DNA of 64,000 nt from Gemmatimonadaceae bacterium. GTDB lineage: Bacteria; Gemmatimonadota; Gemmatimonadetes; Gemmatimonadales; Gemmatimonadaceae. The translations under genes were made by a program, and so were the position numbers. This document shows, piece by piece, positions 7,007 through 59,389 of this stretch; the first letter of the stretch is position 1, and every line of letters begins with the position of its first letter. The stretch is taken from positions 1,009,189 to 1,073,188 of the forward strand of contig JBJMOW010000004.1 of the NCBI GenBank assembly GCA_045803545.1, written 5' to 3'. The notes under the pieces were generated by a model. The model was not told the DNA's origin and did no database searches. It saw nothing but the letters and a program-made list of their open reading frames with translations.

Positions 7007-7046
7007 GCACCCAAGCCCGGAGTCCTCGCCTCCACCGAACGGTTTA

Positions 7047-22941: not shown

Positions 22942-22972
22942 CCCTCCGCCTTCCCGCCTCCCGCGTCCCTCC
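22941..22972. repeat. Short C-rich heptamer-family tract directly after the dnaE2 stop
   Basis: GCCCTCCGCCTTCCCGCCTCCCGCGTCCCTCC. The complement has four GGG tracts. Confidence 0.6.
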
Positions 22973-38874: not shown

Positions 38875-38919
38875 CTTACTGCTGTTTCGCTTTGCGCCTC
38901 TCGCCTCCCGCCTCCCTCC
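38774..38919. repeat. Inverted heptamer-family arms bracketing the start of the lipid-kinase gene
   Basis: gcgcGAGGCGGGCGGCGAGAGGCGGGAGGCGgtg (38774-38807) faces gCGCCTCTCGCCTCCCGCCTCCctcc (38894-38919). Confidence 0.7.
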
Positions 38920-40401: not shown

Positions 40402-41211
40402 TTACCGCTTGGCGATGCCGTCCCAGCGAGTCGGAACGAGAGTGTCGTTCGGCACGGTCTCGACTTCACGCGCGACCAGGATCGCGCTCCCCCAATGACG
40501 GCCGAAGCGGGCGGCTTCTCTGCAGTCCGGATTCCAGATGTCGAGCGTAGCGCCGAGCACATTGCCGCCGGTGTCGTCGACCAGGTAACGACCGAGGTAC
40601 TCGTCGCCGAGGAAGACTTCGACGTAACGCGCGAGCGGGAAAATGCGCGGGTCGGCGGCGACGATGCCGTGACGGGTCTGCCGTCCGCGGCGAGTTTCAC
40701 CCTGTACGCAGTACTGGGTGAGCGACACGGGAATGGTGATTCCGTCCTGGGCCCGTGCGAATTTCGAAGGAATCAGCGGCAGGATTCCCTTCTTCATCTT
40801 GATCGCTTCGTGCGCGGTGGCCCGCACGACATTGCGCGGAATCGACTCGACGCCTCTCGCGATCGGCTTAGTGACTGCAGCGGTCGCGCGTGCAACTTTC
40901 ACGGTCGCCGACGGGACTGCCTTGGCGAGAGTCGCCACGGCGCGCATCGGGGCGGTGAGCATGCCCGCTTCGCTGTGCACGCCTTCGATGTCCGCCAGGA
41001 TCTGCGGCTCGAGAGGCGGCAAGGAGGCCGGAGTAATCTCGCTGGCGGCTTCTACCGGCGAGAGCGACGGCAAGGCGATGGCGCCGGTTGCCACCAGGGC
41101 GACCGCGAGGGTGACTGCCGAGATGGTGCGAGCGATGTCCGCGCGCGACCGCGCCGGGCTACCAGAGGCCGGCACTTCATAGGTACCGCGAGAGACATTG
41201 CTGTTTTTCAT
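40402..41211 (-). CDS. 3D-domain (MltA/RlpA-like double-psi beta-barrel) cell-wall protein
   Basis: The C-terminal segment RHGIVAADPRIFPLARYVEVFLGDEYLGRYLVDDTGGNVLGATLDIW matches the 3D domain pattern. An N-terminal membrane anchor is present. Confidence 0.75.
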   Translation of the reverse strand: MKNSNVSRGTYEVPASGSPARSRADIARTISAVTLAVALVATGAIALPSLSPVEAASEITPASLPPLEPQILADIEGVHSEAGMLTAPMRAVATLAKAVPSATVKVARATAAVTKPIARGVESIPRNVVRATAHEAIKMKKGILPLIPSKFARAQDGITIPVSLTQYCVQGETRRGRQTRHGIVAADPRIFPLARYVEVFLGDEYLGRYLVDDTGGNVLGATLDIWNPDCREAARFGRHWGSAILVAREVETVPNDTLVPTRWDGIAKR

Positions 41212-44944: not shown

Positions 44945-45000
44945 GCGGGAAGCGGGAAGCGGGAAGCGGGATGGAGATTGAGGATTAGAGGATTGGGGAT
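44945..45000. repeat. GGGAAGC x3.5 array (canonical G3N4 quadruplex motif) followed by GAGGATT-type heptamers
   Basis: GCGGGAAGCGGGAAGCGGGAAGCGGG (44945-44970) is followed by atGGAGATTGAGGATTAGAGGATTGGGGAT. Confidence 0.85.
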
Positions 45001-45020: not shown

Positions 45021-46454
45021 CTGACTAAGAAACCAACGCATTACCACCTGATCGGGATCGCTGGTACGGCGATGGCGTCGCTGGCGGGGCTGCTGAAAGC
45101 CGCCGGACATAAAGTCACCGGGTCCGACGAGAACGTTTACCCGCCCATGTCAACCAACCTGGAGCGCATGGGGATCACCTACGCTCAGGGTTACAAGCCG
45201 GAGAACCTTTCACCGGCGCCTGACATCGTCGTGGTCGGCAATGTCATCTCGCGCGGGAATCCGGAGCTGGAAGAGGTGCTGATCCGGAAGCTGCGTTACA
45301 CGTCAGCGGCTGCCACGATCAAAGAAGAATTCATATGGGGTCATCACTGCCTGGCGGTGGCGGGGACGCATGGCAAAACGACCACGACTTCGTTGCTGGC
45401 GTGGCTGCTGGAGTCGGCCGGACTCAACCCGAGCTTTCTGATTGGCGGTGTAGCTGAGAACTTCGGCACATCCTATCGACTCACGGGCTCGCGTTACTTC
45501 GTTATTGAAGCCGACGAGTACGACACGGCGTACTTCGACAAGGGTCCGAAGATGTGGCACTACCTGCCGGACACCGCGATCGTCAACAACATCGAATACG
45601 ATCACGCCGACATCTATCGCGACGAGGAGGCGTACAAGTTCGCCTTCGCGCGCTTCATCAATCTCGTTCCGAAGAACGGCGTGGTGATCGCTGGCTGGGA
45701 CTCGCCAATCGTGCGAGAGCTTGCTCCCAAATCGCCGGCGCCTGTGCAGTCTTTTGCGTATGGGGATGACACAGTGACGTCGCAGGATGCGCAAGCACAT
45801 TGGCACGCGCGCGATGTCGAGTTCGACGAGAGCGGCACCCGGTTCCGCGCTTTCAAGTCGACGGAAGAGTGGGGAAGAGTCGAGACACCTCTCGCGGGCG
45901 CGTTCAACGTGCGCAACGCGCTGGCAGTCATAGCGGCCGCGGAATCAGTGAAAGCCGATCGCGATGGTGTGCGTCAGGGATTCAAGACCTTCGCGAGTGT
46001 GAAGCGACGGATGGAAGTCCGTGGTGAAGTTCGCGGCGTGACAGTGATCGACGATTTCGCGCATCATCCGACAGCGATCCGGGAGACGATCGACGCGGTG
46101 CGACAGAAGTACAAAGGGCGGCGAATCGTTGCCATCTACGAGCCGAGGAGCTACACCGCGCAGCGGCGGGAATTTCAGGACGACTATGCGCGCGCCTTCG
46201 CTGGTGCGGAGGAGATTATTTTCGCGTCGTTGTATCGGCCGGATCGGTACACGAAAGAGACTGCGCTGGATCTCGGAAAGCTCGTTCGGGATCTGAGCAC
46301 TAACGGCAAAACCGCAAAAGAGCTCAAGGATGCTGACACGATCGTGCGTGATCTTGCTCCGCGCGCACGTGAGCGTGATGTGGTGTTGATCATGTCGAAT
46401 GGCGGATTTGGCGGGATCCACCAGAAACTTCTCGACGCGCTCGGAGCTCGCTGA
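45021..46454 (+). CDS. mpl: UDP-N-acetylmuramate:L-Ala-gamma-D-Glu-meso-DAP ligase (murein peptide ligase), probable CTG start
   Basis: HYHLIGIAGTAMASLA...GSDENVYPPMS, GTHGKTTTTS and EADEYDTAYFDK parallel E. coli Mpl as I recall it. The first ATG (45072) lies inside the N-terminal Rossmann GxxGxxM motif. Upstream, the frame has only CTG 45021, preceded by GAGAGGA. Confidence 0.85.
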   Translation: MTKKPTHYHLIGIAGTAMASLAGLLKAAGHKVTGSDENVYPPMSTNLERMGITYAQGYKPENLSPAPDIVVVGNVISRGNPELEEVLIRKLRYTSAAATIKEEFIWGHHCLAVAGTHGKTTTTSLLAWLLESAGLNPSFLIGGVAENFGTSYRLTGSRYFVIEADEYDTAYFDKGPKMWHYLPDTAIVNNIEYDHADIYRDEEAYKFAFARFINLVPKNGVVIAGWDSPIVRELAPKSPAPVQSFAYGDDTVTSQDAQAHWHARDVEFDESGTRFRAFKSTEEWGRVETPLAGAFNVRNALAVIAAAESVKADRDGVRQGFKTFASVKRRMEVRGEVRGVTVIDDFAHHPTAIRETIDAVRQKYKGRRIVAIYEPRSYTAQRREFQDDYARAFAGAEEIIFASLYRPDRYTKETALDLGKLVRDLSTNGKTAKELKDADTIVRDLAPRARERDVVLIMSNGGFGGIHQKLLDALGAR

Positions 46455-46457: not shown

Positions 46458-47048
46458 CTACTCTGGGCTGATCTTTCGGCGCGGCACAATCGGGGTAAGG
46501 CGGGCTGATCCCGTTTTTGCGACGATTCCGAGTTTAAGAATGGTGTTCCAGTTCCGGCCGGTTCCCCGTCCCAGTCTCTTCTCGAGAACCGAGTGGGTGA
46601 GCTTCGATCGGCCCTGGCCGTCCGGGAAATAAATGTAGGCGTGCTTGCCCTTGGCGCGTACGACTTCGCGGCCGCGGATGTCGCCTTGCAGCGCGACGAT
46701 GTCGGCCACGTCCGGCTCGCTCTTCAGGAACATCACTACGAGATGCCCCGAATCCTTCTCGGCTTCTTTGCGGAAAGGATTCTGGCGGATGATGGCCTTC
46801 CACTCATCCGGCGTCCGCACGATGAAATCGGCTTCGAGCGACAACCGATCGAGGGCTTCGCTCTCGAGAAAACGCTCGAGCTCGGAGCCAGTTCTAACCT
46901 TGCTCTCGAAGACGAGGTTACCGCTCTGAAGCAGCGACCGGACGTTCTCCATGCCGAGCGCCGCCAGGAAATTTCGAAGATCGGTCATCCCGACCTGACG
47001 ATGGCCGCCGACGTTGATGCCGCGGACGAGAGCGATATGGGTTGTCAG
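46458..47048 (-). CDS. DUF1697 family protein, probable CTG start
   Basis: The family signature IALVRGINVGGHRQV is encoded upstream of the first ATG (46988). CTG 47048 lies 2 codons after an in-frame TAG and gives (M)TTHIALVRGINVGG, a typical DUF1697 N-terminus. Confidence 0.8.
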   Translation of the reverse strand: MTTHIALVRGINVGGHRQVGMTDLRNFLAALGMENVRSLLQSGNLVFESKVRTGSELERFLESEALDRLSLEADFIVRTPDEWKAIIRQNPFRKEAEKDSGHLVVMFLKSEPDVADIVALQGDIRGREVVRAKGKHAYIYFPDGQGRSKLTHSVLEKRLGRGTGRNWNTILKLGIVAKTGSARLTPIVPRRKISPE

Positions 47049-47098: not shown

Positions 47099-47297
47099 CC
47101 GGCGGGAGGCGGGAAGCGGGAAGCGGGAAGCGGGAAGCGAGAAGGAGGGCGCGAGAGGCGGGAGGCGAGAGGCGGGAGGAGGATGCATTCGCCTCGCCCT
47201 GTCTTCACCGCGCTTCGCTTCCCGCTTCCCGTTTCCCGCCCGCTTCCCGCTTCCCGCCTCCCGCTTCCCGCTTCCCGCTTCCCGCTTCCCGCTTCCC
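47099..47297. repeat. Large inverted pair of heptamer arrays (about 12 units per arm) around a 28-nt spacer
   Basis: The left arm (47099-47183) is GGCGGGAGGC(GGGAAGC)x4...GAGAGGCGGGAGGCGAGAGGCGGGAGG. The right arm (47211-47297) is its C-rich complement, (CTTCCCG)n. The right arm supplies the last roughly 30 codons (GKREAGS repeats) of ORF 47205..48524. Confidence 0.9.
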
Positions 47298-48524
47298 ACT
47301 CCTATATGGGCGCTCCCACTCGCGCAGATGATCCAGCAGGTAGTCGAGCGAGAAGACGTGCCGTGAGTTGTCGGCCTTGCGGCGGAAGATCACGCGTGAC
47401 CAGCCGCGCATCCCCGTCGGGGTGTACCACTCGCCGTTCATGTGCAGCTTGTCGCCATTGATGGCGCGTATCAGTACGCGTTCGTACTGCGACCGCGGAA
47501 GCACGCGTTCGGGGAAAAGGTTGTCCCACGTGCAGAGGCGTCCGACGTCCTCGTACCCCGCCGGCCGATCGTCGAGATCCAGCAGTGATGGAGCGCGCCC
47601 TTTCATCACCGAGCCAATCAGCCTCAGGGTAAACGGGTCGGAGAAGCGGCGGATGTACGGCCAGAAGTGTTTCGTGATCCGACCGGCCATCTCGCGCAAC
47701 GTCATGAAACGGCCGTCGGTCGTTGGCCATTTGTCGGTGTCAATGTCGCTGATGAACGGGTTTTCGGGATAGCAATCGAAACGGGCCAGCCATCCTTTGC
47801 GCGTCGTGTGCGGCATTGGACGGAATCCACGAATCACCGGAATGTCGGTGTCGTCAAGCGCGCTGATTTCGTAACTTGGCCACCGCATCACTTCCCGCAC
47901 AATCCCGACGATCAGGGTCGCTGTTGCAATCATGAGCGGTGCGTCGGGAGTGAAGTCGGCAGTGACCTCGATGCGATCGCCGCGCGGCCGCACCCCGATT
48001 CCCGTCGAACGCCGGTTCGCCGCGAGCAGCATCACCGGAATCGGCAGGATGTGCGCGAGCAGATAAGCCAACTGCTCGACGGTGCGCGTCGTCCCCTGCT
48101 CGTACTTCGGCAGCTCGAACGAGATGTTGTAGTGGGTGCTGAAGCCGGCGAGCTGGACGTCGGTGTCGTGTGCCTGCTCCCAGGCATCGAGCTCCTGACG
48201 CACGAACAGAATCGCTTCCCATAGCGAGCGCCCGGCACGCGCGGCGCAGCCACGCTCGATCTCGATCACTGGCGTCGCCACTTCGATCACGCCCGTATCG
48301 AAATACACGGCACCGCCAGTTGGCAGGTGATACGACCGTCCTTTGCGGTGCATCATCTTCTCGCGGATGATCCTGCGCGGGCTGCCGAAGAGATCCTCAG
48401 GCTTCACCTGCACGCCGTCCTGGATCACCGCGAATTCGGCTTCCATGCCGATTGCGGCGAGCTGGATACGCTCGTGCGTGGATGATTTGTTCTCGGGACC
48501 TTTCTTTTTCTTCAGCTCGGTCAT
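47205..48524 (-). CDS. Distant PafA/Dop / glutamine-synthetase-fold carboxylate-amine ligase-like protein
   Basis: 439 aa. GMEAEFAV parallels the GIETEFG strand of PafA. GGAVYFDTGVIEVATPV parallels GARLYLDVGSHPEYATAE. GFSTHYNISF parallels YGCHENYLI. The order and spacing of the three motifs are as in PafA (about 450 aa), compared from memory. The C-terminal tail is encoded by the heptamer repeat. Confidence 0.5.
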   Translation of the reverse strand: MTELKKKKGPENKSSTHERIQLAAIGMEAEFAVIQDGVQVKPEDLFGSPRRIIREKMMHRKGRSYHLPTGGAVYFDTGVIEVATPVIEIERGCAARAGRSLWEAILFVRQELDAWEQAHDTDVQLAGFSTHYNISFELPKYEQGTTRTVEQLAYLLAHILPIPVMLLAANRRSTGIGVRPRGDRIEVTADFTPDAPLMIATATLIVGIVREVMRWPSYEISALDDTDIPVIRGFRPMPHTTRKGWLARFDCYPENPFISDIDTDKWPTTDGRFMTLREMAGRITKHFWPYIRRFSDPFTLRLIGSVMKGRAPSLLDLDDRPAGYEDVGRLCTWDNLFPERVLPRSQYERVLIRAINGDKLHMNGEWYTPTGMRGWSRVIFRRKADNSRHVFSLDYLLDHLREWERPYRSGKREAGSGKREAGGGKREAGGKREAGSEAR

Positions 48525-48581: not shown

Positions 48582-49208
48582 TCAACTTTTAACGTCCCTC
48601 GGCACTGAGATGACGTATCCCAGGTCGAGGTGTAGATGATCCTCCGCGTAGCCCGTAGGTGTTCCGTAGGGACGCGTCCAAACTCCAGGTAGCGTCTCCC
48701 GCGCGATCAGGCTGAAGCGCTCGATCGCACTTCGGTTGTCCAGGTAAGCGTCGCCAATGCGATAGATATTGGCGGCGGTTCCCCAGGCGTGCGGAGTCGC
48801 ATTCTTGGAGAACCGATGGGAAGGCGACCGATAGCCGCCATTCGCTGAAATGTGAACCAGCGTCCCAACAGCCTCCCGGAACCTCTCCAGACACACTGCA
48901 AGGAGGGTTATTGCGCACGGAACGTACCGGGGGAATGTGCGTAAAGGCGCGGCTTCCCGGACGTCGACCTGTATGAACTCCCAAAGCAGGAAGTGCGTGG
49001 AGAGCTCTACCTTCATCGCCGAGTCCCACGAGGGCACCTCGTAAAAATACCGGGGCAGCTGCCGGGAAAACCCGGTTCCGTCCTTCCATTCCTCCCCCGG
49101 TCTCAAGGCTTTACGGTACTCAGGCGGCAGGGTCAGGCCGTCAACGACCCGAAGGGGGAAGTTGGGGGACTCATGTCTGGCCTCAGCGAAGCTCGACGGA
49201 GCGCTCAT
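48582..49208 (-). CDS. Peptidase M15 (VanY / Peptidase_M15_3-like) fold protein with a variant metal motif, no signal peptide
   Basis: Shows NGGYRSPSHR, then HAWGTAAN (H-x6-N where the family has H-x6-D), then the distal DHLHLD. 208 aa. Confidence 0.7.
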   Translation of the reverse strand: MSAPSSFAEARHESPNFPLRVVDGLTLPPEYRKALRPGEEWKDGTGFSRQLPRYFYEVPSWDSAMKVELSTHFLLWEFIQVDVREAAPLRTFPRYVPCAITLLAVCLERFREAVGTLVHISANGGYRSPSHRFSKNATPHAWGTAANIYRIGDAYLDNRSAIERFSLIARETLPGVWTRPYGTPTGYAEDHLHLDLGYVISVPRDVKS

Positions 49209-50107
49209 TCGTCGGGTGGGCCTTTGGTGAGGGCTTCATAGATAGCGTGTGAGATGGTGGCGATGGTCCGCGACCGACCCGATGTGTTCGGATCCCATTC
49301 CGTAAGAATCACCAGCGCGTAAGGTTTGCGCTTGGGCAGGTAGATCACTCCGGCGTCGTGGGCGACGGTGGAAATCTCGCCGGTCTTGTGCGCAACCCGG
49401 GTGCCTTTGGGCAGGCGTGCCGGGATCCCCTGATTGAATTCCTGCCCGTGCATGATGTCCATCATCCGCCGAGACAAAGCCGGTGAGAAGGCTTTTCCCG
49501 CCGCCAGCATGACGAGAATTCTGAGCAGCCCATTGGCGGTGACGCGGTTATTGATCCCTTTCTCGAACGCGAGCTCGTCCTCGACACCGCGTTTGAGGTC
49601 GATGCCTTGCTCGAGATGCAGCTCGTGCAGGGTCTCGTTGACCGACTGTGGTCCGATGACGCCGAGCACCAGGTTGGTGGCGAGATTGCTCGACGTCGTG
49701 ATCATGTGGTAAGCGAGCTCGTCGACGCGCATCATCTTGCCGATGGCGTTGTGGACGGCTGAATTCGCGTCGCGGCCGGACTCGACGCGGAAAGGAATAT
49801 CTTCGACGACGCTGAGGAACCGGTTGCGGACGTGGACGCGTGAGTGTGGCAACAAATCGCCCCGGTCAATGGCGGCGAAGACGCCGAGCAGGATCGGTAC
49901 CTTGATGGTGCTGGCCGCGTGGAACCAGCGATCGTCGTGGTAATGCAGCTCGAAGCCAGTCTCGAAATCGTGCAGCGCGACGGCGATCGCCTTGGCGCCC
50001 GACTCCCTGGCGATCTTTTCGATCTGGTTCTCGAGGGCGGACTCACTGGGCGCGGCGGCGCTCACACCGGCTGAATGTGCCGGAGATGTTGTTTCCTTGC
50101 TGGTCAT
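49205..50107 (-). CDS. Class-A beta-lactamase-related serine hydrolase, no signal peptide
   Basis: SxxK = STIK, SxN = SSN, KTG = HKTGE. 300 aa. ATGA overlap with the M15 gene. Confidence 0.8.
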   Translation of the reverse strand: MTSKETTSPAHSAGVSAAAPSESALENQIEKIARESGAKAIAVALHDFETGFELHYHDDRWFHAASTIKVPILLGVFAAIDRGDLLPHSRVHVRNRFLSVVEDIPFRVESGRDANSAVHNAIGKMMRVDELAYHMITTSSNLATNLVLGVIGPQSVNETLHELHLEQGIDLKRGVEDELAFEKGINNRVTANGLLRILVMLAAGKAFSPALSRRMMDIMHGQEFNQGIPARLPKGTRVAHKTGEISTVAHDAGVIYLPKRKPYALVILTEWDPNTSGRSRTIATISHAIYEALTKGPPDE

Positions 50108-50114: not shown

Positions 50115-51035
50115 TTATGAATACGCTACGCGCGGGTCGGCTTTGGCGTAGGCGAGATCGGTGAGGAGGTTCACCATCACAAACACAACGCTGAGAAAAA
50201 GCACCGAGCCCTGAATGGCGGGCAAGTCCCGTCGCGTGATGGCATTGACGACGTAGCGGCCAAGTCCGGGCCAGCTGAAGATCGTTTCGGTGAGAATGCT
50301 TCCCGTCAGGTAGTATCCGAAATCGAGACCGAGGACGGTGATGATCGGAATGAGTGCGTTGCGGAGTGCGTGGCGCACTATGACGGCGCGTTCCTTCAAT
50401 CCTTTCGCGCGCGCGGTTCGCACAAAGTCTCCGCCGAGTACATCCAGCATCGCCGATCGGGTGACTCGCGCGAGGAACGCGATCGAGCGCGAGCCAAGCG
50501 CGAACGCAGGGAGAATCAGATACTTGATTCCGCCGTAGCCGGATGGCGGCAGCCAGCGCAGCATCACCGCGAAGATCAGAATCAGAATCAGCCCGACCCA
50601 ATACACAGGGAAAGAGATTCCGAGATAGGCGATGCCGAGACCCAGTCGGTCGAACCAGCCACCTGGAGCCCGGGCACTGAGAACGCCGAGTGTAATACCG
50701 AGAATAGAAGCGAGCAGCATCGCCGATCCGGCGAGAAGCAGCGTTTTCGGGAATCGCTCGAGAATGTCGCGAATGATCGGGCGTTGTGTGATGTACGAGT
50801 TGCCCAGATTACCGCGCACCACGCCGCCCGCGTACAGTGCGAACTGCTTGAGCCGGGGCTCGTCGAGGTGCAGATCTTTTCTCAAACGCGCGATCGTCGC
50901 CGAATCGGCGCGCTCGCCCACCATCTCGGTTACCGGATCACCCGGTGCGACATTGAGCAAAAGAAATGTCACTACCAGCACCCCGAACAGGGTCGGGATG
51001 GCGAGTAGAAGTCGGCGGACGATGAATGCGAGCAC
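50115..51035 (-). CDS. Peptide/nickel ABC transporter permease (DppB/OppB type)
   Basis: 306 aa with 6 TM helices. The EAA-loop region is RTARAKGLKERAVIVRHALRNALIPIIT. Confidence 0.9.
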   Translation of the reverse strand: MLAFIVRRLLLAIPTLFGVLVVTFLLLNVAPGDPVTEMVGERADSATIARLRKDLHLDEPRLKQFALYAGGVVRGNLGNSYITQRPIIRDILERFPKTLLLAGSAMLLASILGITLGVLSARAPGGWFDRLGLGIAYLGISFPVYWVGLILILIFAVMLRWLPPSGYGGIKYLILPAFALGSRSIAFLARVTRSAMLDVLGGDFVRTARAKGLKERAVIVRHALRNALIPIITVLGLDFGYYLTGSILTETIFSWPGLGRYVVNAITRRDLPAIQGSVLFLSVVFVMVNLLTDLAYAKADPRVAYS

Positions 51036-51038: not shown

Positions 51039-52598
51039 CTACTTGCTGATCGTCACGTCAGTCCAACGCTGACCGCTGAACACTGCCGGCACGGCGAAGC
51101 CGTGAATCCAGGGCTGAATGGCGTACATATCCTTGTAGAAAAACAGATACGCCATCGGTGCGTCGGCGAATTGAAGCGAATCCGCCTGCGCGTACAATGC
51201 GTTTCGCTTTGACTCGTCCTGCTCGCGGTGCGCCTGATCCACCAGCGCGTCGAATTTGGGATTCGAGTAGAAGGAGACGTTGCCGCCGGGCCCTTTGTTC
51301 TTGCTGTGCAACAGCGGGAACAGGAAGTTCTCCGCGTCGGGATAATCTGCCCACCATTCCTTGACGTAGAGATCGGCGGCTCCTTTGCGCGCTGCCTCGC
51401 GCACCGACGATGCGTCGCGCTGCACGATCTTCGCGCGGATGCCGGCTTCGGCGAGATTGGCCTGAATTGCCTGCGACAGTCGTGGGGACTGGTCGGTCGT
51501 GGCCGCCCAGAGCTCGACGTCGATGCCATTGGGGTGTCCGGCGGCGGTGAGAAGCTGTTTGGCTTTGGCGACGTCGTGCCCATATGGTTTGCGATTGGCG
51601 TCGTAGCCGGGGAGAGTTGGCGGAACGACGCCGTTGGCAACGGCACCGCGGCCGGCCATGACTGCGCTCAGGATGGTGTTGACATCGATTGCGTAGTTCA
51701 GCGCCTGTCGCACGCGAACATCGGCGAGGGGACCGCGAGTGGTGTTGATCGCGACATACCAGAAGCGAAGCGCGGGAGCGGACTGCAACAGCTTGCTCTT
51801 GTCGGGATCCGCCTGCCACGACTTCCCTGTCTCATCCGGTACGGTCAACACATCGACGTTGCCGGCCTCGAACTCGGCGGTGGCTGTGCTCATCTCGGGA
51901 ATGATGCGCGCCATCAGCGAGTCGCTCTTGGGCAGTCCGTCGAAGTAGTTCGGATTCTTTGCAAACTTGAGGTAATCGTCGTGTTTCCATTCGACGAACT
52001 TCCACGGGCCGGTCCCAATTGGCTTCTGGCCGAAGTCGCTGCCGGCGTTGTCAGGCACGATGGAGTTTACCGGCATTGCCAGCATCTTCGGGAAGATCGA
52101 GTAGGGCTCCTTGAGCGTGATCACGACAGTCGTGTCATTTGGCGCGGCGAGGCCGGTTATCGATGATCCCTTCCCGCCGGCGAAATCCTCAGCGCCTTTG
52201 ATCGGAAATAGTGGCCAACCACGCCCGCCCTTCGTCTTAGGGTCGAGGACGCGCTGGAAAGTCGAAACCACATTTTTCGCGGTGAAGTTCGAGCCGTCAT
52301 GGAACTTGACGCCGCTGTGCAGGTGAAACGTGTAAGTGAGGCCGTCAGGTGTCACTTCCCAGGACTTGGCGAGTCCGGGGACGACTTTGGCGTCAGCGGT
52401 AAATCGAGTGAGTCCGTCGAAGATGTACGCCACCGCGCGACCGGTCGGCACGTCCGTCGAGAGTGCCGGGTCCATCGATCGCGGGTCGTAAGTATCGCGC
52501 GAATCGATCAGTGTTTTGCGTTGAGGAGCTGATGATTCACCACCACCGCCACCACAGCTGAGAAGTGCGGGTATTACGAAGAGGATTAGTCGCCGCAT
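51039..52598 (-). CDS. ABC transporter substrate-binding lipoprotein, family 5 (peptide/nickel)
   Basis: The start is set at ATG 52598 (MRRLILFVIPALLSCGGGGG lipobox). Family-5 SBP pattern throughout. Confidence 0.9.
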   Translation of the reverse strand: MRRLILFVIPALLSCGGGGGESSAPQRKTLIDSRDTYDPRSMDPALSTDVPTGRAVAYIFDGLTRFTADAKVVPGLAKSWEVTPDGLTYTFHLHSGVKFHDGSNFTAKNVVSTFQRVLDPKTKGGRGWPLFPIKGAEDFAGGKGSSITGLAAPNDTTVVITLKEPYSIFPKMLAMPVNSIVPDNAGSDFGQKPIGTGPWKFVEWKHDDYLKFAKNPNYFDGLPKSDSLMARIIPEMSTATAEFEAGNVDVLTVPDETGKSWQADPDKSKLLQSAPALRFWYVAINTTRGPLADVRVRQALNYAIDVNTILSAVMAGRGAVANGVVPPTLPGYDANRKPYGHDVAKAKQLLTAAGHPNGIDVELWAATTDQSPRLSQAIQANLAEAGIRAKIVQRDASSVREAARKGAADLYVKEWWADYPDAENFLFPLLHSKNKGPGGNVSFYSNPKFDALVDQAHREQDESKRNALYAQADSLQFADAPMAYLFFYKDMYAIQPWIHGFAVPAVFSGQRWTDVTISK

Positions 52599-52667
52599 GG
52601 TGTGCTCTGACGGTTGACATGAAGGGGCGAAAGTGGAGAACTTTCGCGCACCCAAAAAGGCCTCATC

Positions 52668-52940
52668 GTGAGCGCAGAATACTATTATCGCCGCCAACTC
52701 GGCGCCAAGGATCTGTTGCCGGCAGTTGGTCTCGGCGTCGCCACGGGTTTGGCCGCGTTCTACATTGTGCAACTCTTAATCCAGCGTACGCCTCTGGTGC
52801 CTCAAGGCGATTTGCCACGGACGCCGACGGCGCCGCCACGGAGAATGCTGGGCGATCGGACCGAGCCGGAGACAGAGACCCACTACGCGCGAGAGCTGCC
52901 GGCGGGTCAACCACCGGGCGCGCGCGCACTGAAAGGGTGA
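52668..52940 (+). CDS. Small single-TM protein translationally coupled to tamA
   Basis: 90 aa. GTG start with AAAGG 8 nt upstream. TM helix LLPAVGLGVATGLAAFYIVQLL. Its stop TGA overlaps the GTG start of the TamA-like gene (GTGA). Confidence 0.5.
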   Translation: MSAEYYYRRQLGAKDLLPAVGLGVATGLAAFYIVQLLIQRTPLVPQGDLPRTPTAPPRRMLGDRTEPETETHYARELPAGQPPGARALKG

Positions 52941-55189
52941 AGCTGACCCGGGTTCGACTCGGGCTTTTCACCGTATTCGCCTTCCTCGCAGCGACTCCGC
53001 TTGTCAGTGCTCGCGCTCAGGACATCGAGTGCGAGCGCGGAGACCTCGAGGTAATGCAACTCAATTTCGAGGGCAATCATGCATTGTCCGACGCCGAGCT
53101 CGCGCGAGCGATTGTAACGACACCGTCCTCGTGGGCCCGCCGCTTCCTGCATCTGCCGTTCACCACCAAGCATTGCCTCGACCGGGTCGAGCTGCCGAAC
53201 GATAGAGCGCGGCTGATCATTCTGTATCGACGTCGCGGGTTCCCCAAGGTGAAAGTGGACACGGCGGTGAAGGTGCTGGCGCCGGGCGCAGTCGCGGTCA
53301 CGTTCACGATCAACGAGGGGCCCCCGATGATTCTGCGCGGCTTCGGCGTTCAGGGACTCGACTCTGTTCCGGAAGGGCCGCGCTTGCTGCGATCTATCAG
53401 GATTAGCGAAGGAATGCGGTTCGATCGCACGACGATGGATACCGCTGCCAACAGCATTCGTGAGCGACTGCACAACAGCGGATACCCGCGCGCAGTCGCC
53501 GAGAACCATCCCGTCGTCAATGACAGTTCATTGAGTGGCTGGGACACGCTGGTGGTCACGGCCGGACCACGAACGAGAATCGGGGCGATCAAGATCGACG
53601 TGACGCCGCTCACCGATAGGAAGCAGCAGATTCCTACCCGCATCGTCAGGAAGATCATGGGTCTCGATTCCGGTCAGCTTTATCGCGAGAGTGAGATTCT
53701 CGATTCACAACGCGCGATCTACCAGACCGAGGCATATCAGCACGTGTCGATCGCGCCGGACAGCGGCGCCGATTCTCTGGTGACGCTTTACGTAAATCTG
53801 GCGGAAGCGCCGATGCACGCGGCGCGCGTCGGAGCCGGCTACGGCACACTCGATTGCTTTCGGCTCACCGGCGAATACACGGACTACAACTTCCTGAACG
53901 GCGCGCGCAGACTCGATCTCACCACTCGTGTCTCGAAGATCGGAATCGGGCGGCCGCTGGATTGGGAGCCCAACCTGTGTCCCGCCGCGAAGAAGGATGT
54001 CTTCAGCAATCGGCTCAACTACTACGCCGGCGCAACGCTGCGACAGCCGGTGTTCCTCGGCTTGCGGACGGTGCCGACGCTGACGGTGTACTCGCAGCGG
54101 ATCTCGGAATACAACGCATATCTGCGGACAACGTCCATCGGTGGCGCGGCGTCGTTGATCTGGCGCAGCCTCACACGCACACCGGTGAATCTGACCTACT
54201 CGATGGATCTCGGACGCACCGAAGCGCAGCCGGCTCTGTTCTGCGCGGTGTTCAATCTGTGTGAGGCGGCCGAGCGCGAGCGGATACAACGGACACAGCA
54301 GCTGGCGATCCTGAGCCTCGCGGTAACGCGCGACAACTCGAACAATTTGTTATCGCCAACTCGCGGTTCGGTGATTCGGTTGGAGGCTCGGCATTCTTCG
54401 CCGGCGATCCTCTCCAACAAGGACCTGCAGTTCAACAAGCTGGTCGGCGATGCTTCACGTTACATCGCGGTTGGCAGCTCGGTGATTGCAATGCGCGTCC
54501 GTGGCGGGTCGGTCTTTGGCCGCAACGTTCAATCAGCGACCGGGTTCATCCCGCCGCAGGAGCGTCTCTATGCCGGTGGTCCGACAACTGTGCGCGGATT
54601 CGCTCAGAATGAGCTTGGGTCGCTCATCTACATCTCCGGGTCTCAGGAAGCATTCTTCATCGACAACCCAAACGGGACCCGCGATACGGTGCTGCTGCAG
54701 GAGCACACGGACAGCGCTGTCCGGCGAACCGTGCCTGTGGGCGGTAACTCTTTGGTTGTGGGGAATCTCGAGCTCAGAATGCGCAGTCCATTCCTGTCGG
54801 AGCTGCTGCAATGGACCCTTTTTACGGATGCAGGCGAGGTATGGAATCGGGGTACTGGCCAGCTTAAGCAGGTGAAGCTCAAAGTGACGCCAGGAATTCA
54901 ACTTACGGCGTTCTCTCCGGTGGGACCTGTGCGTCTAGCAGTAGGGTACAATCCATACCGCCGACCGCCGGGGCCGATCTACTTTGAAGGGACCAGTCTG
55001 GGTGGTGAGTTATTGTGCGTAAGTCCGTTCAACACCATCAAGACACACATCACGTACGATACGAATGGGAATCCGACGAGCATTAGTCAGGACCCGGGCG
55101 GCATCTGTCCCTCGACGTATCAACCGCCGACGGACAACAGTCTTCGCAGCAAGCTCACGTTCAGCTTCGCGATCGGTCAGGCTTTCTAA
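52937..55189 (+). CDS. tamA: BamA/TamA-family outer-membrane protein (POTRA + Omp85 barrel)
   Basis: Start GTG 52937 gives the signal peptide VKLTRVRLGLFTVFAFLAATPLVSARA. It has POTRA-like repeats, an Omp85 barrel and the C-terminal beta-signal FAIGQAF. A TamB-like gene follows. Confidence 0.85.
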   Translation: MKLTRVRLGLFTVFAFLAATPLVSARAQDIECERGDLEVMQLNFEGNHALSDAELARAIVTTPSSWARRFLHLPFTTKHCLDRVELPNDRARLIILYRRRGFPKVKVDTAVKVLAPGAVAVTFTINEGPPMILRGFGVQGLDSVPEGPRLLRSIRISEGMRFDRTTMDTAANSIRERLHNSGYPRAVAENHPVVNDSSLSGWDTLVVTAGPRTRIGAIKIDVTPLTDRKQQIPTRIVRKIMGLDSGQLYRESEILDSQRAIYQTEAYQHVSIAPDSGADSLVTLYVNLAEAPMHAARVGAGYGTLDCFRLTGEYTDYNFLNGARRLDLTTRVSKIGIGRPLDWEPNLCPAAKKDVFSNRLNYYAGATLRQPVFLGLRTVPTLTVYSQRISEYNAYLRTTSIGGAASLIWRSLTRTPVNLTYSMDLGRTEAQPALFCAVFNLCEAAERERIQRTQQLAILSLAVTRDNSNNLLSPTRGSVIRLEARHSSPAILSNKDLQFNKLVGDASRYIAVGSSVIAMRVRGGSVFGRNVQSATGFIPPQERLYAGGPTTVRGFAQNELGSLIYISGSQEAFFIDNPNGTRDTVLLQEHTDSAVRRTVPVGGNSLVVGNLELRMRSPFLSELLQWTLFTDAGEVWNRGTGQLKQVKLKVTPGIQLTAFSPVGPVRLAVGYNPYRRPPGPIYFEGTSLGGELLCVSPFNTIKTHITYDTNGNPTSISQDPGGICPSTYQPPTDNSLRSKLTFSFAIGQAF

Positions 55190-55224
55190 GCCGGGCTTCC
55201 GCCTCTCGCCTCTCGCCCTCCGCG
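55190..55224. repeat. Short C-rich heptamer-family tract between tamA and tamB
   Basis: GCCGGGCTTCCGCCTCTCGCCTCTCGCCCTCCGCG, which contains complements of GAGAGGC units. Confidence 0.6.
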
Positions 55225-55225
55225 A

Positions 55226-58200
55226 ATGACCCGGCGTCTCCGCATCGCCATCGGCAGCGCGATCATCCTGTTCGGGTTGATCATGATTGTCGTGCTCGGC
55301 TTCATCGGCATCACGCATACGAGCGTGGGCCAGGAGCGTGTGCGGAGCATGATCGCGACCCTACTCGAAGGTAAGGTCAAAGGAAGAGTCTATCTCGGCC
55401 ACCTGAGCGGCGGCCTCGTCGGCGGAGTCACAATCGACTCGGTCGAAATTCGCGACGACGAGGATTCGGTGTTTTTCGCATCGGGACCAATCACGGTTGC
55501 ATACGATCCACGCGATTTGCTGGATCGCCGCATTCTCTTCAGTCGGGTTGAGGCGCAGCGGCCCTACGTGCACCTGCGTCAGCACGAGAACGGCGAGTGG
55601 AATTTCCGCCGCATTTTCCCGGCGAGCGTGGAGAAGCAGCAGCGAAATCAGCGCGGGTTCGGACAGTACATCGTCGCCGACACGTCGATCGTCCGCGATG
55701 CGCGGATGGATCTGACACTGCCTTGGCACCTGTCCGACACTCTGCGTGGCTACAAGCGCGACAGCGCGGTGCGCTACGAGCTCACGCGCAAAGATCACGA
55801 GATTCACAAGACGCGTGAGGGTTATGCGCGCACCTGGCGCTGGAGTGATATCGACGCCGACCTCGGCTACGCTCGCATCGCAGATCCTGACACAGTCGGT
55901 CGTTTGATTCGCATTCGGAATGTCAGCCTGACTGAGACGGATCCGCCGTTCAAGTTCCGAAACGTCGCCGGTACTTTCCTGAATCTTGGCGACTCGGTGT
56001 TCATCGATGCCGATCATTTTGATCTGCCCGGATCCACCGGTCGCGCGCACGGCAGCGTGATCTGGGGCAGCGATCTGCCTGTTCGCTATTACATACATGT
56101 AGTAGGAGACTCAGTCTCCCTCGCCGATGTAGCGTGGGTGTATCCGACGCTGCCTAAGACGGGCAGTGGCAAGATGGAGCTCGACATCCGCAGCGAGCGA
56201 AATCCCAAGCTTCTCGACTACATCATCAGCAACATGGATGTGCGCTCGACTCGCTCGCACCTGCTCGGCAATATGACGTTTGGCACCGGGGGTAGCGTAC
56301 TGGCGGTGAAGAATGTCGAGCTGCAGGCAGCGCCGGTGAATTTCGACTTGCTGCGGACGCTGAACGGCAAGCCGTTCCCGTACAACTGGCAGGGAAACAT
56401 CACCGGTACGGTGCGGGCGTCGGGCGGCCCACTCAATCACTTCAAGGTTGAGGAGTCGGCGTTGATCTTCGACGACGCCAACGTGGCCGGCGCCGAGACC
56501 GAGGCGCGCGGCAATGGCGAGCTGGACATCCTGTTCCCGGCGTTCACTGCCTTTCACGCATTCAACGTCGACGTCGCGACGCTCGATCTGCGCACACTGC
56601 AGTACCTCAATCCGCAGTTCCCGCGGATCAAAGGCACCGTCTCGGGCACTGCGACGCTGGACTCCTCGTGGCTGGACGTTCGCTTCAGCAACGCCAGCCT
56701 GTTCCATCACGATGGCAACCTCCCGCTGTCGCATGCAACGGGGAATGGCCGCATCACGTGGGGCGAGAAGTATCTCACCTACGATTTGAATCTTCACGCC
56801 GAACCGCTGTCGTTTACCGCGCTGGTGCACTCTTATCCGTTGCTGCCACTGCGCGGCAGCTACCAGGGCCCGGTGCAGGTGAAGGGACAGTCGCCCGGCC
56901 TACTGGTGAACGCGACCCTGACCGGACCGGCCGGCCAGTTCGCGTACAGCGGGCTCGTCGACGCGGATCCTTTGGTCTACGGTGCACGTGGGCGCGCGAC
57001 TTCGACCGCGCTCGATTTGCGCACGCTGATGGACAACAGTCAGCTACCGCACACTCAGCTCACCGGGCGCTATGATCTGGATCTGCACGGCGCTGACCTG
57101 CCGTCACTCGCGGGCAGTGCAGTAGCGCAGATCGAGAAGTCGACACTCGGCGGATTCCGCGTCGATCCGTCGGTGGCACGCTTGCATTTCGCGAACGGCG
57201 TAGCGACTGTCGACACCCTCGCGATCAACGCATCGGGACTGCAGGCGAGCGCGGCCGGCACCTTCGCGCTGACAGGAGCGCACCAGGGCTCGCTGAAGTT
57301 TTCGGCGGAGATGGATTCGCTGGCGCGGCTGCGCACTCTGGTGCCGGCGCTCGCAACCAACGCTCAACTCGATTCGCTGCGCGGCAGCGGCCAGCTTACC
57401 GGCGAGCTCTCGGGCAGTATTGAGCATCTCGCGCTAAATGGAGTGATCCGCGCCAACGATGTCAGTTTCGGCAGACAGAGCGTAGAGAGCATTCGTGGTA
57501 CACTGCTTCTCGCGGACATCACCAAACAGCCTACAGGCTCCTTCCTCTTCGGCGCGGACACCGTCGCGCTTGGACCCGTCGGGTTCAACAGCATGCGGGC
57601 AACAATAGCGCTGACCTCGCCGACGTCCGGGCATTTCAGCGCATCCATGCTGAGTCAGAGCGGCGTGTCGACCGAGCTCGCCGGCAACATCACACGCAGC
57701 AAGGACACGACAATCGTGCGCCTTGACAGCGCAGCGGTTGACGTCGACGCGGACAACAGATATCGGCTACAGTCGCCGAGCAAGGCGGTATTGTCGAAGG
57801 GATTTCTGTCGCTCGATTCATTGATTCTGCAACACAGCAGCAACGCCAAGCTCATCGTCCAGAACCTGCGCTTTACCGGCGACTCGATCAACGGACACAT
57901 TCGCACGGACAGCGTCGACATGCGTCTCTTCCGCGCCTTCGTACCGGGACTGGTAGACGCTCGCGGCGCGATTGTCGCCGACGTCGACGTGCGCGGCGCG
58001 GTCAAGCAGCCGCGTCTCTATGGCCAGATCACGTTGCCGGATGGAACTGCTGCCTTCTCAAACCTCGGCACACGTTTCAATCACATCCGCGCGAACATCA
58101 CGCTCGACGGCGATTCCGTGCACATCAAGCAGTTGTCGGCGGAGACCAACAAGGACCGTCGCGGATCGGCGAACGTGACGGGCACGGTGAGCTTCGAGCA

Positions 58201-59389
58201 TTATGACAATCCGTCATTCTCGATCGTGGCAAACGCGTCGAACTTCCACGCCATCGACAAGCCTGGACTGGCAGCGCTCGACATCTCGACTGGACCGCCA
58301 GTGACGCTTAGCGGGTCAACGCAGGACGCGGTTTTGCACGGCGCCGTCCGCGTCGAACGCGGGTCGATCTACATCCCGGAAGTCATCAAGAAGAACGTGA
58401 TCGACTTGAACGATCCCGATCTGCAGACGACCGTCGACACGCTGCTGTCGCAGAATCGAGAAGTGATGCCGCGCGCGCCAAAGGCAGTCGCACGCAATCT
58501 CCGGCTTGAAGATGTGAACGTCGATATCGGACCCGACGTCTGGCTGCGTTCATCGGAAGCCAACATCAAGCTGGGCGGGTCGCTGAACGTGACGATGGCA
58601 TCCGGCGGTCCTGGCCAGCCACCGCAGCTGGCGTTGCAGGGAATCTTGAGCGCAGACAAAGGCACCTATCGACTGAACCTGGTCGACCCATTCGTCCAAC
58701 CGACCTTCGACGTGCAACGCGGAACGCTGACGTTCTACGGAGACACTCAGCTGAATCCGCTGCTCGACATCGCCGCCATTCACACGGTTCGTCAGCCGAG
58801 GATTCAGACCGCAAACGGTCGTGACGTGCGTGTGGAGGTCGACATCACCGGTACACTGGCGCGGCCATCGCTCGCGCTCAAGAATCCGGACAACCTGCCG
58901 TTGTCCGAGAGCGACTTGCTCAGTTATCTGGTGACGGGTGAGCCGGCGGTCGGTCTCGACAACACCGGAACGCAGGTCGCCGCCCTCGGCGTCCGTACCG
59001 CGGCCAACCTGCTGGTGAGCGCATTGCCGAGGAACGTCGTCGATTATCTGGAGATCCAGACGGCAGCGCCCGGTAGCGATCCAAATCAGGCGTCCTCACT
59101 GTCGCAATACTACGGGTTGTTGAACACCCGCGCGATACTCGGCAAGCAGGTTGGCAGCAAGTGGTTTGTCGGCCTCAGCACTGGACTATGTTTCGTAAGC
59201 TCCAGTCTTTTCAAAGAGAATTTGGGCCTGCAGCTCGAGTACAGAATCAGTCCGGTGTTGAGTGCACAGGCCGCAATCGAGCCGGGCTCCAGCGCTCGGT
59301 GCGACCCGACTGGTCAGAAGCTGGTGATCCCGCCGAACCAGACTCCATCACAGCTCGGCTTCGACCTCTTTCGCAACTGGCGTTTCTAA
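55226..59389 (+). CDS. tamB: Translocation and assembly module protein TamB (AsmA-like, DUF490 C-terminus)
   Basis: 1387 aa with an N-terminal membrane anchor (AIILFGLIMIVVLGFIG), a long beta-rich body and a C-terminus ending in aromatic residues. It sits directly downstream of the TamA-like gene. Confidence 0.85.
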   Translation: MTRRLRIAIGSAIILFGLIMIVVLGFIGITHTSVGQERVRSMIATLLEGKVKGRVYLGHLSGGLVGGVTIDSVEIRDDEDSVFFASGPITVAYDPRDLLDRRILFSRVEAQRPYVHLRQHENGEWNFRRIFPASVEKQQRNQRGFGQYIVADTSIVRDARMDLTLPWHLSDTLRGYKRDSAVRYELTRKDHEIHKTREGYARTWRWSDIDADLGYARIADPDTVGRLIRIRNVSLTETDPPFKFRNVAGTFLNLGDSVFIDADHFDLPGSTGRAHGSVIWGSDLPVRYYIHVVGDSVSLADVAWVYPTLPKTGSGKMELDIRSERNPKLLDYIISNMDVRSTRSHLLGNMTFGTGGSVLAVKNVELQAAPVNFDLLRTLNGKPFPYNWQGNITGTVRASGGPLNHFKVEESALIFDDANVAGAETEARGNGELDILFPAFTAFHAFNVDVATLDLRTLQYLNPQFPRIKGTVSGTATLDSSWLDVRFSNASLFHHDGNLPLSHATGNGRITWGEKYLTYDLNLHAEPLSFTALVHSYPLLPLRGSYQGPVQVKGQSPGLLVNATLTGPAGQFAYSGLVDADPLVYGARGRATSTALDLRTLMDNSQLPHTQLTGRYDLDLHGADLPSLAGSAVAQIEKSTLGGFRVDPSVARLHFANGVATVDTLAINASGLQASAAGTFALTGAHQGSLKFSAEMDSLARLRTLVPALATNAQLDSLRGSGQLTGELSGSIEHLALNGVIRANDVSFGRQSVESIRGTLLLADITKQPTGSFLFGADTVALGPVGFNSMRATIALTSPTSGHFSASMLSQSGVSTELAGNITRSKDTTIVRLDSAAVDVDADNRYRLQSPSKAVLSKGFLSLDSLILQHSSNAKLIVQNLRFTGDSINGHIRTDSVDMRLFRAFVPGLVDARGAIVADVDVRGAVKQPRLYGQITLPDGTAAFSNLGTRFNHIRANITLDGDSVHIKQLSAETNKDRRGSANVTGTVSFEHYDNPSFSIVANASNFHAIDKPGLAALDISTGPPVTLSGSTQDAVLHGAVRVERGSIYIPEVIKKNVIDLNDPDLQTTVDTLLSQNREVMPRAPKAVARNLRLEDVNVDIGPDVWLRSSEANIKLGGSLNVTMASGGPGQPPQLALQGILSADKGTYRLNLVDPFVQPTFDVQRGTLTFYGDTQLNPLLDIAAIHTVRQPRIQTANGRDVRVEVDITGTLARPSLALKNPDNLPLSESDLLSYLVTGEPAVGLDNTGTQVAALGVRTAANLLVSALPRNVVDYLEIQTAAPGSDPNQASSLSQYYGLLNTRAILGKQVGSKWFVGLSTGLCFVSSSLFKENLGLQLEYRISPVLSAQAAIEPGSSARCDPTGQKLVIPPNQTPSQLGFDLFRNWRF

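Follow-up and report, generated by a model that had tools for sequence, protein, structure and literature searches.

The 64,000-nucleotide stretch of Gemmatimonadaceae DNA analysed here (contig JBJMOW010000004.1, positions 1,009,189 to 1,073,188; hereafter the window) carries on its minus strand a gene for a hypothetical protein, the target, which we tentatively read, with confidence somewhat short of even, as a murein-peptide amide ligase acting alongside Mpl and representing a new family within the glutamine synthetase (GS)-fold carboxylate-amine ligase superfamily with an intact catalytic core. Two kinds of evidence carry this reading. The first is a predicted structure whose best relatives are PafA, Dop and the YbdK-type GCS2 enzymes, combined with high conservation of the residues that correspond to their metal ligands and catalytic Asp. 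The second is genomic: the target gene is the last of a fixed trio, after two genes for peptidase-type proteins named bla2 and p208 here, and it frequently lies close to mpl. The target gene and the parts of its product are the following.

47205-48524, minus strand: target gene, an open reading frame (ORF) with an ATG start, 439 aa
About residues 20-406 of the target protein: conserved core, assigned to an unannotated family of the GS-fold carboxylate-amine ligase superfamily
47208-47303, minus strand: non-conserved C-terminal tail (residues 408-439) made of GKREAGS-type repeats, delimited by tandem repeat finding (TRF), by sequence and by a predicted local distance difference test (pLDDT) score below 50

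The target protein and its family

The translation holds the three motifs quoted by the first-pass annotation of this DNA, which had proposed a PafA/Dop-like ligase fold for the ORF, namely AAIGMEAEFAV (G26-E30), GGAVYFDTGVIEVATPV (G70-V86) and GFSTHYNISF (G127-F136). GC content is even across the window (58-63%), and base composition does not shift at the target gene. Over its last ~32 codons the frame runs on into tandem copies of a 7-bp unit, (GGAAGCG)n in coding-strand orientation, and the resulting tail is variable in sequence among homologues. Since it is not conserved, the conserved protein comprises ~405 aa rather than 439; the length comparison with PafA that had been put forward has to be corrected for the portion that is repeat read-through. 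The tail also accounts for the only NCBIfam or Pfam entry obtained for the query, a weak match to the NCBIfam model 'KRQAASG repeat spurious translation'. Within the C-terminal region of ~190 residues, R242, G244, W245, R277 and Y324 are invariant.

A search of 5.8 billion proteins returned 4926 homologues at E<=1e-3, none of them with a Pfam domain, and the top ones are all annotated 'hypothetical protein' and belong to Gemmatimonadaceae or Gemmatimonadota. An exhaustive profile search of 1.84 billion cluster representatives yielded only 469 clusters, including many fragments, which makes the family populous yet narrow. A scan of one genome per GTDB species found a relative in at least 463 genomes; the best 80 of these are nearly all Gemmatimonadota (Gemmatimonadaceae, Longimicrobiales), and a few are bins labelled Blastocatellia, Acidobacteriota or Bacteroidetes. 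The target had no tblastn match among plasmids, and PADLOC gave no match for the trio or for the distant homologues.

Predicted fold

The AlphaFold2 model of the target, built on a 32-sequence alignment, has a mean pLDDT of 81.5 and a predicted template modelling (TM) score (pTM) of 0.80, and only residues 1-22 and 408-439 are disordered. Strands are placed at residues 24-35, 72-74, 80-83, 123-135, 176-181 and 184-190 and helices at 93-119 and 195-212, and the predicted model thereby agrees with the GS fold as described by Iyer et al. 2008 (PMC2588565), a saddle-shaped sheet in which core strands number six and strands 3 and 6 are each followed by helical structure. A Foldseek search of the PDB with this model gave the following matches.

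PafA-Pup complex 4bjr: E 8.7e-9, TM 0.47/0.42, probability 1.00
Dop 5lrt, 7oy3, 7oxv and 4b0r: E 4e-8 to 4e-7, TM up to 0.52 (5lrt, E 4e-8, probability 1.00)
YbdK/GCS2 1r8g and 1tt4: E 7e-6, TM 0.41/0.50 for 1r8g (0.50 when normalised to the target)
GshF 3ln7: E 1e-2
Glutamine synthetase: E 0.13

The PDB matches at E<=1e-3 number 13, each of them a chain of PafA, of Dop or of a YbdK-type GCS2 enzyme, and the best matches in an independent library of viral structures (BFVD) are named 'COOH.NH2 ligase-type 2' and 'Amidoligase'. With PafA, Dop and GCS2/YbdK on top, the proposed PafA/Dop-like fold is supported by the model. The first-pass annotation had made its proposal depend on profile and structure searches: the former (Pfam, NCBIfam, PDB sequence) gave nothing significant, the latter was positive, and the target falls into no characterised family with a known substrate.

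Catalytic core

Sequences of real PafA (C. glutamicum, 4b0t/4bjr) and Dop (A. cellulolyticus) were obtained through a PDB search and turned into profiles for hhalign. The PafA side of this comparison is shallow, as the homologue search gave just Corynebacterium PafA at >=58% identity; a further sequence of its profile is presumably M. tuberculosis PafA, as judged only from its match to 4b0t (E 8e-155). The family profile aligned to PafA/Dop with a pairwise P of ~0.002, at a hhalign probability of 12-14%, and the motifs pair as had been claimed: GMEAEF (from G26 on) with GIETEY, GGAVYFDTGV-IEVATP (Y74, D76, E81) with NGSRLYLDVGSHPEYATAE, with a gap before I80, and FSTHYN (H131, N133) with YGCHEN. 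This P value and the Foldseek E values together make the likeness to PafA more than chance.

In Dop, Mg is coordinated by E8, E10, Y92, E99, H155 and H241, D94 is catalytic and R227 binds inorganic phosphate (Pi) (PMC8599861). Once these residues were located on the Dop sequence itself, E8, E10, Y92, E99, H155 and D94 were found to correspond to E28, E30, Y74, E81, H131 and D76 of the target; at the Asp aligned to D76, the chain of 4bjr reads LYLNVG, i.e. D57N. The core strands that bear these residues are encoded as follows.

48435-48449, minus strand: core strand 1, GhExE, G26-M-E28-A-E30, equivalent to the metal ligands E8/E10 of Dop (hhalign)
48270-48305, minus strand: core strands 2-3, Y74-F-D76-T-G-V-I-E81-V-A-T84-P85, equivalent to Y92, D94 and E99 of Dop (D57 of PafA)
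48126-48134, minus strand: core strand 4, H131-Y132-N133, of the type [HD]x[NH], equivalent to H155/N157 of Dop (hhalign)
47955-47990, minus strand: core strands 5-6, a tight hairpin R179-P-R181-G-D-R184-I-E186-V-T188-A-D190 with Arg fingers and the strand-6 Glu

Conservation was scored in an alignment with homologues down to 34% identity. Over this range Y74, D76, E81, T84 and P85 (22 sequences for D76 and E81) as well as H131, Y132 and N133 are invariant, and so are R179, R181, R184, E186, T188 and D190. G26, E28 and E30 are at least 90% conserved with homologue P0127 as sole exception, and R171/R172, in the loop before strand 5, are conserved in most, not all, members. The equivalents of the metal ligands and of the catalytic Asp (E28, E30, Y74, D76, E81 and H131) are the most conserved positions of the family. 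At the place of the HPEY of PafA the family has G78-V79-I80-E81, and the His is not conserved, as had been observed from the sequence.

Five classes of motif characterise the superfamily: strand 1 bears GhExE or Ex[EH], strands 2 and 3 bear acidic residues, strand 4 has [HD]x[NH], strand 5 an Arg with another in the preceding loop, and strand 6 Ex[RK]x2D, replaced by [QH]x4D in PafA (PMC2588565). Scored against that description, the target possesses the motifs of strands 1-4 and the strand-5 Arg. Strand 6 reads E186-V-T188-A-D190, in which the Glu is kept, the Asp stands at +4 and not +5, and Thr takes the place of Arg/Lys. By eye, the strand 5-6 hairpin is similar to I-R-P-S-P-H-F-G-T-V-E-V-R-V-M-D of E. 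coli YbdK, and strands 5-6 of the two proteins would correspond on this inspection.

P0127 itself, a metagenomic sequence of 42% identity, has IVLVSFF instead of IGMEAEF and has thus lost the ExE, the rest of the core being kept. It may be an inactive paralogue or the product of a sequencing or assembly error.

A three-gene cassette linked to mpl

The second line of evidence, which goes beyond the first-pass annotation, is the three-gene cassette and its proximity to mpl. The genes concerned are listed below.

49205-50107, minus strand: bla2, first gene of the trio, 300 aa, class-A-beta-lactamase-fold serine hydrolase of the Beta-lactamase2 family (PF13354, E 9e-48)
48582-49208, minus strand: p208, middle gene of the trio, 208 aa, homologue of Peptidase_M15_3 (LAS-type zinc peptidase) according to hhalign
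45072-46454, plus strand: mpl, UDP-MurNAc:L-Ala-gamma-D-Glu-meso-diaminopimelate (meso-DAP) ligase, convergent with the cassette (TIGR01081)
46458-46988, minus strand: DUF1697 gene, between the target and mpl (PF08002, E 3e-25)
50115-51035, minus strand: DppB-like peptide ABC permease (ORFs; Pfam families of the orthologues in a related locus, L001)
51039-52772, minus strand: SBP_bac_5 substrate-binding lipoprotein, whose real start is probably near 52598 (Pfam of the L001 orthologues)

Neighbour proteins of the window were searched by tblastn against 85 loci, of which ~80 include the upstream flank. In every one of these ~80 loci bla2, p208 and the target gene follow each other in this order and on the same strand, and metagenomic homologues at 51%, 45% and 44% identity retain the trio as well. 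bla2 and p208 overlap by 4 nt, within a series of tightly packed genes of the same strand that runs from SBP_bac_5 and the ABC permease through bla2, p208 and the target to DUF1697. The mpl product scores 425.9 bits with TIGR01081, above the cut-off of 388.7. mpl occurs within the flanks in 42 of the 55 informative loci: in 8 it is the immediate downstream neighbour, in convergent orientation, in 8 the immediate upstream neighbour, in divergent orientation, and in 20 further ones it lies at <=1.5 kb. The linkage of the trio with mpl survives rearrangement. Clustering of all neighbour ORFs across the loci, in which clusters are contaminated by antisense shadow ORFs of high-GC DNA, revealed no recurrent neighbour beyond the trio, mpl and clade-specific genes. 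A literature search for the combination of bla2, p208 and the target gene found no relevant paper.

The DUF1697 gene is present only in the closest Gemmatimonadaceae clade and therefore probably lies outside the core of the cassette. The SBP/permease pair, packed directly upstream of the trio, is likewise found only in loci at >=77% identity (the same clade); the lipobox of its first member, LLSCGGG, comes ~58 codons after the start of the ORF as listed. The pair has neither another permease gene nor an ATPase gene with it.

The bla2 product bears the motifs STIK, SSN and KTG, and among solved structures it comes closest to Tll2115 from Thermosynechococcus (2j7v, E 2.8e-26). Tll2115 is the PBP-A of cyanobacteria, a DD-peptidase that has class A beta-lactamases as relatives. 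According to a hydrophobicity scan, which is a crude test, an N-terminal hydrophobic segment is missing in 73 of 79 bla2 orthologues and in 70 of 82 p208 orthologues. The sequence suggests that bla2 is a cytoplasmic, DD-peptidase-like protein, and if the crude test holds both partners would be cytoplasmic, which is unusual for their families. That bla2 might confer resistance as a class A beta-lactamase gene was weighed and dismissed, given a score below the NCBIfam class A beta-lactamase cut-off (114 vs 200 bits), PBP-A as closest relative and the missing N-terminal hydrophobic segment.

p208 itself has no Pfam match, and 10 of 30 members of its family match PF08291 weakly (best E 0.021, none at the Pfam cut-off). 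tblastn with p208 found phage M15_3 proteins, and hhalign of the p208 family against one phage M15_3 endolysin gave a probability of 97% (E 8e-11); that endolysin matches PF08291 at E 1.5e-20 and has a PG_binding_1 domain in addition. The zinc motif of LAS enzymes is H-x6-D ... H-x-H, and H140, N/D147 and H193 are the predicted zinc ligands of p208. Neither H140 nor H193 varies; H191 is constant in the family alignment, but 7 of 73 locus-derived members have Q instead. For the first ~95 residues no relative can be recognised, and the model is poor there.

Relationship to known systems

PafA and Dop (PF03136; 4bjr, 4b0t, 5lrt) are the best structural matches of the target and have the same order of core strands. 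Common to them and the target are the GhExE of strand 1, the Y-x-D strand with the catalytic Asp (D57 in PafA and D94 in Dop, equivalent to D76), the E-h-A-T strand (PEYAT in PafA, IEVAT in the target) and the H-x-N of strand 4; overall length is similar, and the same acyl-phosphate chemistry on a carboxylate is presumed. The differences begin with strands 5-6, where the long PafA/Dop segment RPIINTRDEPHAD...YRRLH, as a pattern RPIINTRDEPHAD...RRLH[VI]xxGD, with R227, H231 and H241 of Dop, is represented in the target by the tight RPRGDRIE hairpin, whose 12 residues (R179-D190) include no equivalent of the H231 loop and have a Glu where PafA/Dop has H241. The target also lacks the Dop loop. 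It has no significant sequence or Pfam match to PafA/Dop, with no PF03136 hit at E<=10, and it occurs in Gemmatimonadota, whereas PafA/Dop are found in Actinobacteria or Nitrospirae.

The genomic context differs as well. In PafA/Dop loci a pup gene lies adjacent, whose product of 50-90 aa has G[EQ] at its C-terminus, and genes for the proteasome or Mpa are usual too (PMC2588565), while the partners of the target are two peptidase-type enzymes. The first-pass annotation had seen no Pup-like ORF and no Mpa or proteasome gene in the window, and we agree: no reading frame of >=30 aa ends with GGQ or GGE in the 64 kb (a search for the narrower GG[QE] ending and not for every G[EQ]), and a Pfam scan of ~45 window ORFs found no proteasome, Pup, Pup_ligase or Mpa-type ATPase family. 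Nor is there a conserved small ORF beside the target in the ~80 loci, where the fixed neighbours are two enzymes. Without a PF03136 match, a Pup-like ORF or a proteasome gene, and with a GCS2-like hairpin, the target is not a member of the PafA/Dop family.

With GCS2/YbdK (PF04107; 1r8g, 1tt4) the target has in common the GS-fold cradle, for which the TM normalised to the target is the best obtained, the GhExE, an E-L-A-T strand (in YbdK) and a strand-4 H-x-H/N. The YbdK hairpin 'IRP...TVEVRVMD' resembles 'VRPRGDRIEVTAD' of the target family, and both would act on small substrates as soluble enzymes that stand alone. The likeness is confined to structure, with no PF04107 match and no sequence signal. 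Unlike GCS2/YbdK, the target has a Y-x-D strand of PafA/Dop type, ExTxD instead of ExRx2D on strand 6, the extra C-terminal region and a different operon. With strands 1-4 of PafA/Dop type and strands 5-6 of GCS2 type, the family has the look of a hybrid, and of the small-molecule enzymes that survive it might be the one most closely related to those of pupylation.

Cells handle murein peptides through several systems, such as recycling by LdcA, MpaA and Mpl in E. coli, or VanX/VanY together with a ligase in vancomycin resistance. The trio is reminiscent of them by its combination of a DD-peptidase-type enzyme, a LAS-family peptidase and a predicted ATP-dependent amide ligase near mpl, all of them apparently cytoplasmic, a likeness of logic only. 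Its proteins are not those of the known pathways, i.e. neither S66 LdcA, M14 MpaA, M15B/D VanY/VanX nor ATP-grasp Ddl/VanA.

Proposed function and alternatives

The first-pass annotation had suggested a divergent carboxylate-amine ligase or a Dop-like amidase with another substrate than Pup, and the predicted fold, the invariant core residues and the lack of Pup and proteasome genes in the window are in favour of this. In the proposed mechanism Mg-ATP would be bound in the beta-sheet cradle by E28/E30, Y74, E81, H131/N133 and E186 together with a cluster of Arg residues, R179/R181/R184. Phosphorylation would then turn a carboxylate of the substrate into an acyl-phosphate; this carboxylate is, by analogy, probably of glutamyl type, as is normally the case throughout the superfamily (PMC2588565). 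D76 would deprotonate the incoming amine, whose attack would create an amide bond or, as in Dop, the enzyme might instead hydrolyse the corresponding amide. The conserved cassette with two peptidase-type genes, usually near mpl, argues for a peptide substrate, probably a cell-wall peptide. Rather than a Pup-like protein, the substrate would most likely be a small D-amino-acid-containing peptide from peptidoglycan turnover, perhaps a stem-peptide fragment processed by bla2 and p208 in the cytoplasm, and the target would work with Mpl in the salvage or remodelling of murein peptides.

One may speculate further from chemistry. The gamma-D-Glu-meso-DAP bond and the amidated carboxyls of stem peptides are chemically of the kind made by PafA and broken by Dop. 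A PafA/Dop-type enzyme could have been recruited without Pup to make or break gamma-D-glutamyl, isopeptide-like bonds or amidated carboxyl bonds of stem peptides in the cytoplasm, together with a PBP-A-type DD-peptidase and an M15_3 peptidase devoid of signal peptides, in a new phylum-wide salvage or remodelling module feeding Mpl in Gemmatimonadota. We regard this more specific scenario as unlikely, if appealing.

Several observations weigh against a murein-peptide ligase of the GS-fold superfamily. Sequence-profile methods gave no significant match, so that the assignment to the superfamily depends on a predicted structure with TM values of just 0.42-0.52. In particular, Pfam and NCBIfam scans found no relevant family for the query at E<=1 and nothing relevant for 31 close and 9 distant homologues at E<=10, and PDB sequences yielded nothing relevant by phmmer with the single protein or by profile search. 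The hhalign probability is 12-14% against PafA/Dop and 0.2%, i.e. no signal, against a single-sequence E. coli YbdK. Regarding the active site, the PafA/Dop loop with the adenine-stacking His (H231 of Dop) and R227 is absent, the Glu of the PafA HEN is a Tyr, and the ExTxD of strand 6 is neither Ex[RK]x2D nor [QH]x4D; with these three features, nucleotide binding is a prediction only. The canonical Asp ligand of LAS enzymes (H-x6-D) is an Asn in 23 of 30 members of the p208 family and an Asp in 7, and the AlphaFold2 model of p208 is poor (pLDDT 65), without significant Foldseek match. mpl was not found in 13 of the 55 informative loci, which have >=3 kb of flank on both sides, and part of its linkage could be inherited synteny. 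The two most distant full-length homologues lie outside the trio, in unrelated contexts. Finally, we know of no murein-recycling step that uses or requires a GS-fold enzyme.

The direction of the reaction is the first matter on which readings diverge. As a Dop-like hydrolase, the target would hold ATP or ADP and Pi and cleave a gamma-glutamyl-type amide by phosphorolysis followed by hydrolysis, which would make the target the third degradative or trimming enzyme in a cassette of hydrolases only; candidate bonds are gamma-D-Glu-meso-DAP, iso-glutamine or the DAP amide of recycled stem peptides. Dop scores as well as PafA in Foldseek (with the highest TM for 5lrt), the catalytic Asp and metal ligands are common to both enzymes, and both partner genes are of hydrolase type. 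Dop moreover shows that the fold can act as a gamma-glutamyl-amide amidase, but it is also the sole known hydrolase of the superfamily (PMC7947786). From strand 1 to the YxD strand the target counts ~44 residues, as in PafA, vs ~84 in Dop, and this lack of an insertion of the size of the Dop loop, together with the isolated position of Dop among ligases, tilts the balance towards a ligase. No sequence feature separates ligase from amidase, a choice that the sequence alone cannot decide. We consider the hydrolase improbable on the whole, and the ligase direction is kept in the murein-peptide proposal as a presumption.

A second matter is the pathway. The target could be a carboxylate-amine ligase of a small-molecule pathway outside peptidoglycan recycling, with peptidase-fold partners that tailor the metabolite, for example a gamma-glutamyl peptide, thiol or osmolyte, a modified non-ribosomal or D-amino-acid peptide, or in the handling of a beta-lactam or dipeptide toxin. 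Other orphan families of the superfamily are predicted to make peptide metabolites rather than to tag proteins (PMC2588565). The 34%-identical homologue adjoins non-ribosomal peptide synthetase (NRPS) genes and LAS-like and CHAP-like proteins, the 13 loci without mpl fit such a pathway, and a cytoplasmic class-A-fold enzyme would be unusual for cell-wall work. Yet the trio is inherited phylum-wide, in at least 463 species genomes, and is chromosomal, with no plasmid match and no adjacent biosynthetic core genes; mpl is its only recurrent extra neighbour across rearrangements. On this evidence a small-molecule ligase seems doubtful to us. A tabtoxin-like scenario, i.e. detoxification of a beta-lactam inhibitor of GS, is attractive by analogy and unsupported, and it was set aside; phylum-wide vertical conservation argues for a housekeeping role and against it.

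It is very improbable that the target is a catalytically dead scaffold, or that its likeness to ligases is due to chance or to the model without the corresponding chemistry. The silence of sequence-profile methods, the missing part of the PafA nucleotide-binding loop and the loss of ExE in P0127 would agree with this view. Against it, what stays invariant over the range of 34-95% identity is exactly the set of metal-binding and catalytic residues of the superfamily, to which all 13 Foldseek PDB matches at E<=1e-3 belong, and the independent viral library also returns amidoligases. Least credible of all is a true protein-tagging ligase with an unrecognised, non-Pup small protein tag: PafA is indeed the top structural match and the Asp that deprotonates its acceptor lysine is conserved, but tagging was set aside for want of a tag ORF (no GG[QE] ending in the window, no conserved small ORF in the ~80 loci) and of proteasome or AAA unfoldase genes among the scanned window ORFs, along with the lack of a PF03136 match.

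Fold, superfamily and chemistry are already known, and earlier reports exist on orphan families within the carboxylate-amine ligase superfamily. None of the libraries and literature searched describes the present family, its active site of hybrid build, its restriction to Gemmatimonadota or its cassette, which includes two signal-less proteins of peptidase type. A large family, with thousands of sequences, had been missed by Pfam, NCBIfam and PDB sequence searches although it is conserved across an abundant, poorly studied soil phylum, and these thousands of hypothetical proteins may be annotated as "GS-fold carboxylate-amine ligase, PafA/Dop-like". In this family two peptidoglycan-type peptidases and mpl appear as the partners of the PafA/Dop/GCS2 catalytic machinery, in the place of Pup and the proteasome. 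Should the murein-peptide role be true, the target would represent a new enzyme class in the recycling or remodelling of cell-wall peptides. The family could also be an evolutionary intermediate on the way from small-molecule gamma-glutamyl ligases to pupylation enzymes. The three-gene cassette is defined and directly testable in cultured Gemmatimonas strains, which offers a worthwhile lead, with a putative function, to specialists of pupylation or cell-wall recycling.

Distant homologues and other features of the window

Among the most distant homologues, P0139 (39% identity; 6001-7287 of locus L091) is located among DndB, QueC-like and PTPS genes. P0150 (34% identity; 6001-7203 of locus L088) lies beside a 302-aa M74/LAS-like protein, a 199-aa CHAP/NlpC-like protein and NRPS genes, and downstream of MqsA-antitoxin and ParA-like genes. 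Both may be island-borne paralogues with another substrate.

Further cell-wall-related genes are encoded at 59541-60443 (plus strand) and 40402-41211 (minus strand), <=12 kb away. One encodes an NlpC/P60 peptidase whose SH3 domains include the 'dipeptidyl-peptidase SH3' type known from gamma-D-Glu-diamino-acid endopeptidases, and the other a 3D-domain protein. Divergent from the cassette, positions 52565-59389 of the plus strand encode an Omp85/POTRA protein followed by a TamB-family protein of 1387 aa, a TamA/TamB-like pair that also flanks the cassette in L001.

Many long antisense shadow ORFs occur on both strands of the high-GC DNA between 40000 and 56000, such as 47667-48224 (plus strand) inside the target gene and 48589-49089 (minus strand) inside p208.

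The repeat that reads into the target ORF is part of a larger structure, identified by repeat finding and from the sequence.

47101-47297, strand not applicable: inverted pair of heptamer arrays around the target stop codon

These inverted arrays could form a hairpin of ~200 nt, with an RNA minimum free energy of -149.9 kcal/mol (z -8.75). Arrays of the heptamer GGAAGCG/CGCTTCC are also present at 13464-13491, 44948-44968, 22955-22968 and 38902-38915, and the window contains 21 heptamer-array matches vs 1.06 expected. They may represent a terminator or a dispersed repeat element of this genome.

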